Origin: Eledone cirrhosa
Lineage: Eukaryota
NCBI GenBank assembly: GCA_964016885.1
Contig: OZ024765.1
Location: 5,952,001 to 6,016,000, forward strand
DNA: 64,000 nucleotides
Direction: 5' to 3'
The position numbers and the translations under genes are program-made. Below the pieces are notes generated by a model, which did not search any database, was not told the DNA's origin, and was given only the letters and a program-made list of their open reading frames with translations. Shown here piece after piece: positions 44,335 to 44,450 of this stretch. The first letter of the stretch is position 1. Each line of letters opens with the position of its first letter.

Positions 44335-44448
44335 ACGAAGGAAATGTGGTAAGGAACCAGGTGGACCATAACGCACCAAAGTACTCAATACTTGAGGTAG
44401 TAGAGTGGGTAATAGGAACCAGTAAGACCCCGGGGTCTTACTGGTTCC

Positions 44449-44450
<2 letters not shown>
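44332..44450 (-). mobile_element. Short family A copy with a 38-bp terminal palindrome
   Basis: taggaaccagtaagacccc|ggggtcttactggttccta followed by the family A tail. Confidence 0.8.

Follow-up and report, generated by a model that had tools for sequence, protein, structure and literature searches.

A head-to-head stub of a Hydra-type Penelope-like element in Eledone cirrhosa, likely copied from an RNA cut by its own hammerhead

The window, by which we mean the whole 64-kb stretch of Eledone cirrhosa DNA that was analysed, carries at 44334-44448 a short insertion, the stub, in which two arms meet head to head between blocks of (TA)n (Table 1). Positions are numbered from the predicted hammerhead cut GUC/GGGG, with the first G behind the cut as +1 and the C as -1. 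Read on the minus strand from 44431 to 44334, the stub consists of GGGG, the downstream part and the tail, and it matches +1 to +98 behind the GUC of L042, an intact-ORF copy of subfamily S1, at 98/98 bases. The initial annotation had described a short copy that starts at GGGG without the upstream part, and this match agrees with it. The perfect inverted copy that was said to cap it at the axis 44431/44432 is also present, as a perfect palindrome at 44412-44451 with 20-bp arms; it is the sole non-microsatellite perfect palindrome with arms of at least 10 bp in the window. An ambiguity of about 1 nt had been noted at this axis; it does exist, but its nature is a CG microhomology at -1/+1. The outer end of the inverted arm, TTCC/TA, recurs as a fixed second end in most copies, and we infer that this end at +17 is a second start of reverse transcription (RT). 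In a tandem copy, the 81-nt tail continues into the sequence preceding the ORF start.

Table 1. Coordinates of the stub, its (TA)n target and longer family copies in the window
Feature	Position	Strand	Evidence
Tail-bearing arm, +1 to +98 (stem I 3′ strand GGGGU, then tail)	44334..44431	-	98/98 identity to L042, subfamily S1
Tail-less inverted arm, +1 to +17, runs into (TA)n	44432..44448	+	sequence
Head-to-head junction CCCC/GGGG, axis on the predicted cleavage site; CG microhomology permits -1 too	44428..44435		
81-nt tail between the two fixed ends	44334..44414	-	
(TA)n target, left	44307..44333		
(TA)n target, right	44449..44476		
Longer family copy, both arms tailed, junction upstream of the cut site (about -24/-44)	37403..37665		
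Longer family copy of the main class, arm ends -43/-44	51341..51543	+	
Two sister-subfamily copies, sense arms begin near -35	16495..16883	+	

The order GAAA-CGGC..GCCG-TC-GGGG that had been read in longer copies is found in those at 37403-37665 and 51341-51543. Other repeats of the window have related features. Further near-perfect hairpin insertions in (TA)n derive from other repeat families (44056-44220, 17524-17904, 51795-51903 and 22244-22359), and these probably share the head-to-head layout. Family B, also in (TA)n, lies at 51235-51322 (+) and 44740-44815 (-) and has a CUGAUGA..GAAA hammerhead with a predicted cut at GUA/AAUG. A minimal hammerhead-like motif of another repeat (CUGAAGA, 4-bp stem II, GAAACGUC) is found at 52590-52630 (+).

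Judged from its sequence, the stub derives from the 3′ end of a Hydra-type Penelope-like element (PLE), EN+. Its family identity can be read directly. A 24-base tail motif has 21,890 exact matches in the 3.0-Gb genome (about 22,000 copies), and upstream of the long copies lie a 3′ UTR and then the end of an ORF. Locus L141 holds a full tandem unit of pLTR, 719-aa ORF (counted from Met) and pLTR, with a spacing of 3,118 bp. Between the two pLTR copies, the open frame at L141:7629-9986 contains YRDD and YIG motifs, and by motif reading it is a single ORF with RT and a GIY-YIG-type EN. The 719-aa protein has RWR at 37, DKT at 117, CNCPDRSIC (CxCx5C) at 572, CNLC (CxxC) at 670 and CKH (CxH) at 698; it has no CCHH, and CNLC at 670 is its only CxxC. 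A Pfam scan of this ORF returned 0 families. The insertions sit in (TA)n, as in the Hydra clade. We provisionally assign the element to this clade on its protein motifs and its (TA)n targets, which fit the description in the available part of Craig et al. 2021 (PMC8557442).

The layout of the copies is also that of a PLE. L141 contains a partial tandem, inverted 5′-truncated copies with a one-sided tail occur, and 70/131 tail-anchored copies have a joined tail-less inverted arm. The usual short copy reads (TA)n, inverted arm from +17, junction, sense arm, tail and (TA)n. Partial tandems, an inverted 5′-truncated copy and a one-sided tail are already described for PLEs in the consulted part of PMC8557442. 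L141:4958-10000 and L043 contain the intact tandem element (pLTR, 719-aa ORF, pLTR), preceded upstream by a truncated copy in inverted orientation; this element could serve for in vitro work. At L003:480-1410, a long piece of 3′ UTR is inverted, with its outer end inside the stem II loop and not at +17. A non-LTR retrozyme, made of tandem non-coding hammerhead repeats, was considered as well; the short copies here occur singly or inverted, without the 5′ half, and the long copies are coding. The retrozyme, a MITE and an assembly artefact are ruled out by the coding parent together with 49 dispersed loci that share the junction.

A complete U3-A8 type I hammerhead is directly visible in the long copies. 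Its parts are stem I (ACCCC/GGGGU), U3-A8, G10.1-C11.1, GAAA and GUC; in most copies the core is U3-UGA-N-A8-A. A long stem II, a stem III of 6 pairs and a stem I extension that ends at +17 complete the structure. In a pattern search, 3,924 places genome-wide match the full motif. The upstream half reads ACCCC-(U/C)UGA(G/U)AA, with A8 in all 100 of the matches listed. Thus, the upstream half predicted for full-length copies exists, but it carries a U3-A8 core and the literal CUGANGA is absent in the listed matches. U3-A8 is a natural covariation that is reported to be active in vitro (PMC3088659) and occurs in PLEs (PMC4209133), according to the accessible parts of both papers. The U3-A8 copies have all features of a three-stem type I hammerhead, and the C3·A8 subfamily does not. 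C3 stands opposite A8 in 16 of the 100 matches listed and in about 24% of the long copies by depth in run X1. This C3·A8 subfamily is a successful one (L031, L044, L045, L347-L359) and is linked to a tail variant; our literature search found no paper on C3·A8 activity. In S1, the subfamily of the stub, the hammerhead is the minimum-energy fold with a P of about 0.36, and P is 0.002-0.06 in four other references. Fold stability against shuffles is unremarkable (z-score -0.14). An Rfam scan of the window, where all copies are truncated, gave 226 matches; the 150 of these that were listed are microsatellite-driven miRNA matches and include no hammerhead.

To locate the arm ends relative to the GUC site, we used a short-hairpin pattern with 734 genome matches, and parsed all 99 loci represented by the 100 matches listed. 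In 38/99 of these listed hairpins, the junction carries untemplated bases, so that both ends are unambiguous. The sense end among these 38 is +1 in 25, +2 in 3, +3 in 4 and -1 in 0; the inverted end is at +1 in 22/38, and both arms are at +1 in 19/38. This pile-up of both arms at one base is a direct observation, with a binomial p of 7e-19 for the sense end (25/37 within 12 positions) and 9e-16 for the inverted end. Two of the 19 symmetric inserts (ATT) could be CpG-decayed GTC. Genome-wide, CCCC-W-GGGG occurs at 49 dispersed loci. The same design at the second AGCCGUC/G, which is the same 7-mer 23 bases upstream at the base of stem II, gave 0 loci. Axes at +2/+3 (CCC-W-GGG, CC-N-GG, CCC|GGG) were symmetric in 0 of 24 loci, and in every one of these loci one arm extends fully to +1. 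Symmetric junctions with an insert were found in 0/51 listed control-site hairpins vs 19/99 at the cut site (Fisher p 0.0004); the 51 were read by eye, and script parsing of 14 gave the same result. Of 43 S1/2 copies, 0 have a perfect join at AGCT, a 4-nt palindrome nearby, vs 7 at CCCC|GGGG. The single-base peak at GUC/GGGG sought by the initial annotation is therefore present genome-wide, though minor. Self-cutting of the RNA in the animal is likely, as is the copying of the resulting piece back into DNA.

The extent to which the peak is minor was seen in a length-unselected sample. It was drawn from the window, four stretches next to it, and the first 100 tail matches on contig C1 together with their neighbours, and it yields 132 copies for which 350 bases or more of upstream sequence are available. 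Few of them end at the cut site, and the main peak is at -35 to -47: 70 copies start there (53 by a stricter method), 11 reach further, and only 5/131 (about 4%, with the stub left out) start at +1/+2. Ungapped end-calling mislabels diverged sister subfamilies, with piles at +14, +24 and +40, and the end histogram was taken from the other method. Among 16 listed loci in which a copy abuts (TA)n directly, read by eye, 4 have a start at +1/+2. In about half of the copies, both arms end at -35 to -47, a stretch within the stem II loop, and past -47 the ends fall off in a cliff (for example, 51341-51543 and 37403-37665). Read depth in four contig runs shows a roughly tenfold rise at about -45 to -25 in two of them. 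The cliff past -47 suggests that a short RNA starts there; either such a start or a strong stop inside the ribozyme is its likely cause. The sequence at the cliff, T(C/T)AGT, has what we take to be a resemblance to an initiator.

Whether the +1 peak reflects self-cleavage has to be weighed against the possibility that RT stalls at the folded, perhaps protein-bound, ribozyme core, or that a protein nuclease cuts there. The site is a helix junction adjoining a G run, which would suit a stall. However, RT that stalled at the base of stem III should presumably still have copied the unpaired C at -1, whereas 25 unambiguous ends fall at +1 and none at -1, and the same 7-mer at the base of stem II yields no such class. 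The C3·A8 mismatch form is expected to cut poorly. Its copies still contribute to the +1 class, as a stall or nuclease would allow, but they are under-represented, and trans cleavage could explain the remainder. The tail marker TTCG is linked to C3 in 5/7 and C3 never has TCCG, while U3 has TCCG in 6/6; TTCG is found in 4/5 S4-type W-class copies with a readable tail (from 7 stretches, one without a match and one not S4). S4 is reduced, not absent (5/49 vs 24/77), a partial depletion for which p is 0.009 if a share of 25% is expected and 0.10 if 18% is. The peak has no replicate in family B, which would also fit a stall or nuclease; 3/30 of its copies are at +1 without a sharp peak, and their junctions are A/T-rich and ambiguous. 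For a third, minimal-hammerhead family, the pattern matched 0 loci and so carries no information either way. In work on another PLE, cleavage proved unnecessary in vitro, and none of the RNA-seq reads had an end at the cut site, according to the available part of Frangieh et al. 2024 (PMC11167929). Overall, we regard a stall or nuclease cut as quite unlikely, and self-cleavage as the preferred explanation of the peak.

Even with a real family peak, the stub itself may come from an uncut RNA or a longer palindrome that was joined or collapsed at the CG microhomology straddling the cut site. Its join has no spacer and falls in the perfect class, which makes up 12/99 short hairpins. The CCCC|GGGG join is of an ambiguous kind, since the CG microhomology can also make it. 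Microhomology joins do occur at non-cleaving sites, with about 10/99 at TGAGCTCA and 9/51 listed perfect joins at the control site TTTC|GAAA (about 400 loci), where the microhomology is 4 nt; the frequency of perfect joins there is similar to that at the cut site. That of the stub is only 2 nt, the neighbouring GC and AGCT palindromes have 0/99 perfect joins, and the 12 blunt joins, 7 one-base inserts and 12 longer inserts at +1 fit a single insert-length series. A microhomology origin of the stub thus appears unlikely, and the stub quite probably belongs to the +1 class. The earlier view of the stub as a fossil of a self-cleaved RNA gains from the family-level +1 peak and the complete hammerhead; it is weakened by the small size of the peak and by the ambiguity of the stub's own join.

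The inverted arm had been explained as hairpin-copied, and this part of the earlier view fits the junctions poorly. In such a fold-back, one cDNA would reach the cut 5′ end, fold back and copy itself into the inverted arm. Spacers of 0-1 base leave no loop, and it is established chemistry that spacers of 0-1 nt cannot form a priming loop. Among the 70 copies with a joined inverted arm, this arm extends beyond the sense arm in the 5′ direction by more than 3 bases in 25, falls short of it in 19 and ends level with it in 26. A fold-back is unlikely because such a copy cannot contain sequence that its template lacks, as the inverted arm often does (25/70), although later deletion could mimic some of these cases. 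The outer end of the inverted arm is also fixed at +17, like the second RT start seen in the available part of PMC11167929. The two arms share subfamily-diagnostic bases in 96/99 copies and their ends correlate (Spearman 0.30, p 0.011), which a fold-back would produce; these features also point to one RNA or one source. Self-priming has been proposed for such palindromes, on an antisense template, in the part of PMC3846280 that we could consult. We consider a fold-back to be very improbable, and favour two separately primed cDNAs as the origin of the arms. In L014 and L016, which are of the same subfamily, the arms differ at the same base reciprocally, hinting at two templates for two arms.

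Our best explanation, to which we give a probability of roughly 0.6, is that the stub is a young 5′-truncated head-to-head insertion of a Hydra-motif PLE, likely copied from an RNA cut by its own hammerhead at GUC/GGGG. By the route we infer, the long transcript would cleave itself at GUC/GGGG and the element's protein would nick both strands of (TA)n. Copying would be primed by one nick at +98, where the tail ends, and by the other nick at +17. Both cDNAs would run off the 5′ end of the RNA at +1, often with a few untemplated bases added, and the two cDNA ends would be joined head to head via template jumping or end joining. Most insertions, with ends at -35 to -47, would come from a likely shorter RNA that lacks the 5′ half of the ribozyme and would be unable to cut in cis. 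For an Anolis PLE, the accessible part of PMC11167929 shows in vitro that RT begins at two points, one on each side of the tail, and uses both target strands.

In R2 retrotransposons, the 5′ junction is set by a ribozyme cut. The element described here resembles R2 with its 5′ HDV-like ribozyme in that the cut would set the 5′ end of the copied RNA; the cut is the normal route there, whereas it would account for a few percent of insertions here (PMC6765202, available part). The closest likeness is to the EN+ PLEs of the Hydra clade. As far as the consulted sections of PMC8557442 go, these share the single ORF with RT followed by a GIY-YIG-type EN, the RW(R), DKT, CxCx5C, CxxC and CxH motifs, the (TA)n targets, the hammerhead in the pLTR, the partial tandems, the inverted 5′-truncated copy and the one-sided tail. 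They differ in a unit under 3 kb and a tail of 30-40 bp, compared with about 3.1 kb and 81 nt here, and in having RWK, compared with RWR and a U3-A8 core with long stems II and III here. In those sections, the function of the hammerhead is called unclear and no insertion class ending at the cut site is described. Poseidon PAc of Anolis has the same two tail-flanking starts, primes on both target strands and uses A/T-rich targets, but uncut RNA is its dominant template, whereas here a minor genomic class ends exactly at the cut site (PMC11167929, available part). U3-A8 type I hammerheads with the same core covariation were found earlier in Schistosoma PLEs; compared with minimal dimeric metazoan motifs, the 6-bp stem III with a loop seen here could let the ribozyme act as a monomer (PMC4209133 and PMC3088659, in the parts at hand).

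The kind of element and its layout are thus already known. What appears to be new is well-controlled, indirect, sequence-based evidence that the hammerhead may cut in vivo and that the cut RNA may sometimes be copied. In the open-access literature, we came across no account of PLE insertions whose ends map to the hammerhead site. The odds are about even for the wider claim that hundreds of insertions are single-base-precise fossils of germ-line hammerhead self-cleavage, the first in vivo evidence found for an EN+ PLE, and that the joins, whether blunt or with untemplated bases, reflect two RTs that begin at different points of one RNA, copy it to its shared 5′ end and are then joined. If this is true, counting junctions would measure ribozyme activity in any PLE family from the genome alone. 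The C3·A8 subfamily offers a natural test of whether catalysis matters for spread. The sharp cut-site class suggests germ-line cleavage as a side route whose products are dead-end stubs roughly 100 bases long. These junctions are also relevant to the formation of the head-to-head repeats that characterise these relatives of telomerase, and the intact ORF and ribozyme found here make both points testable.
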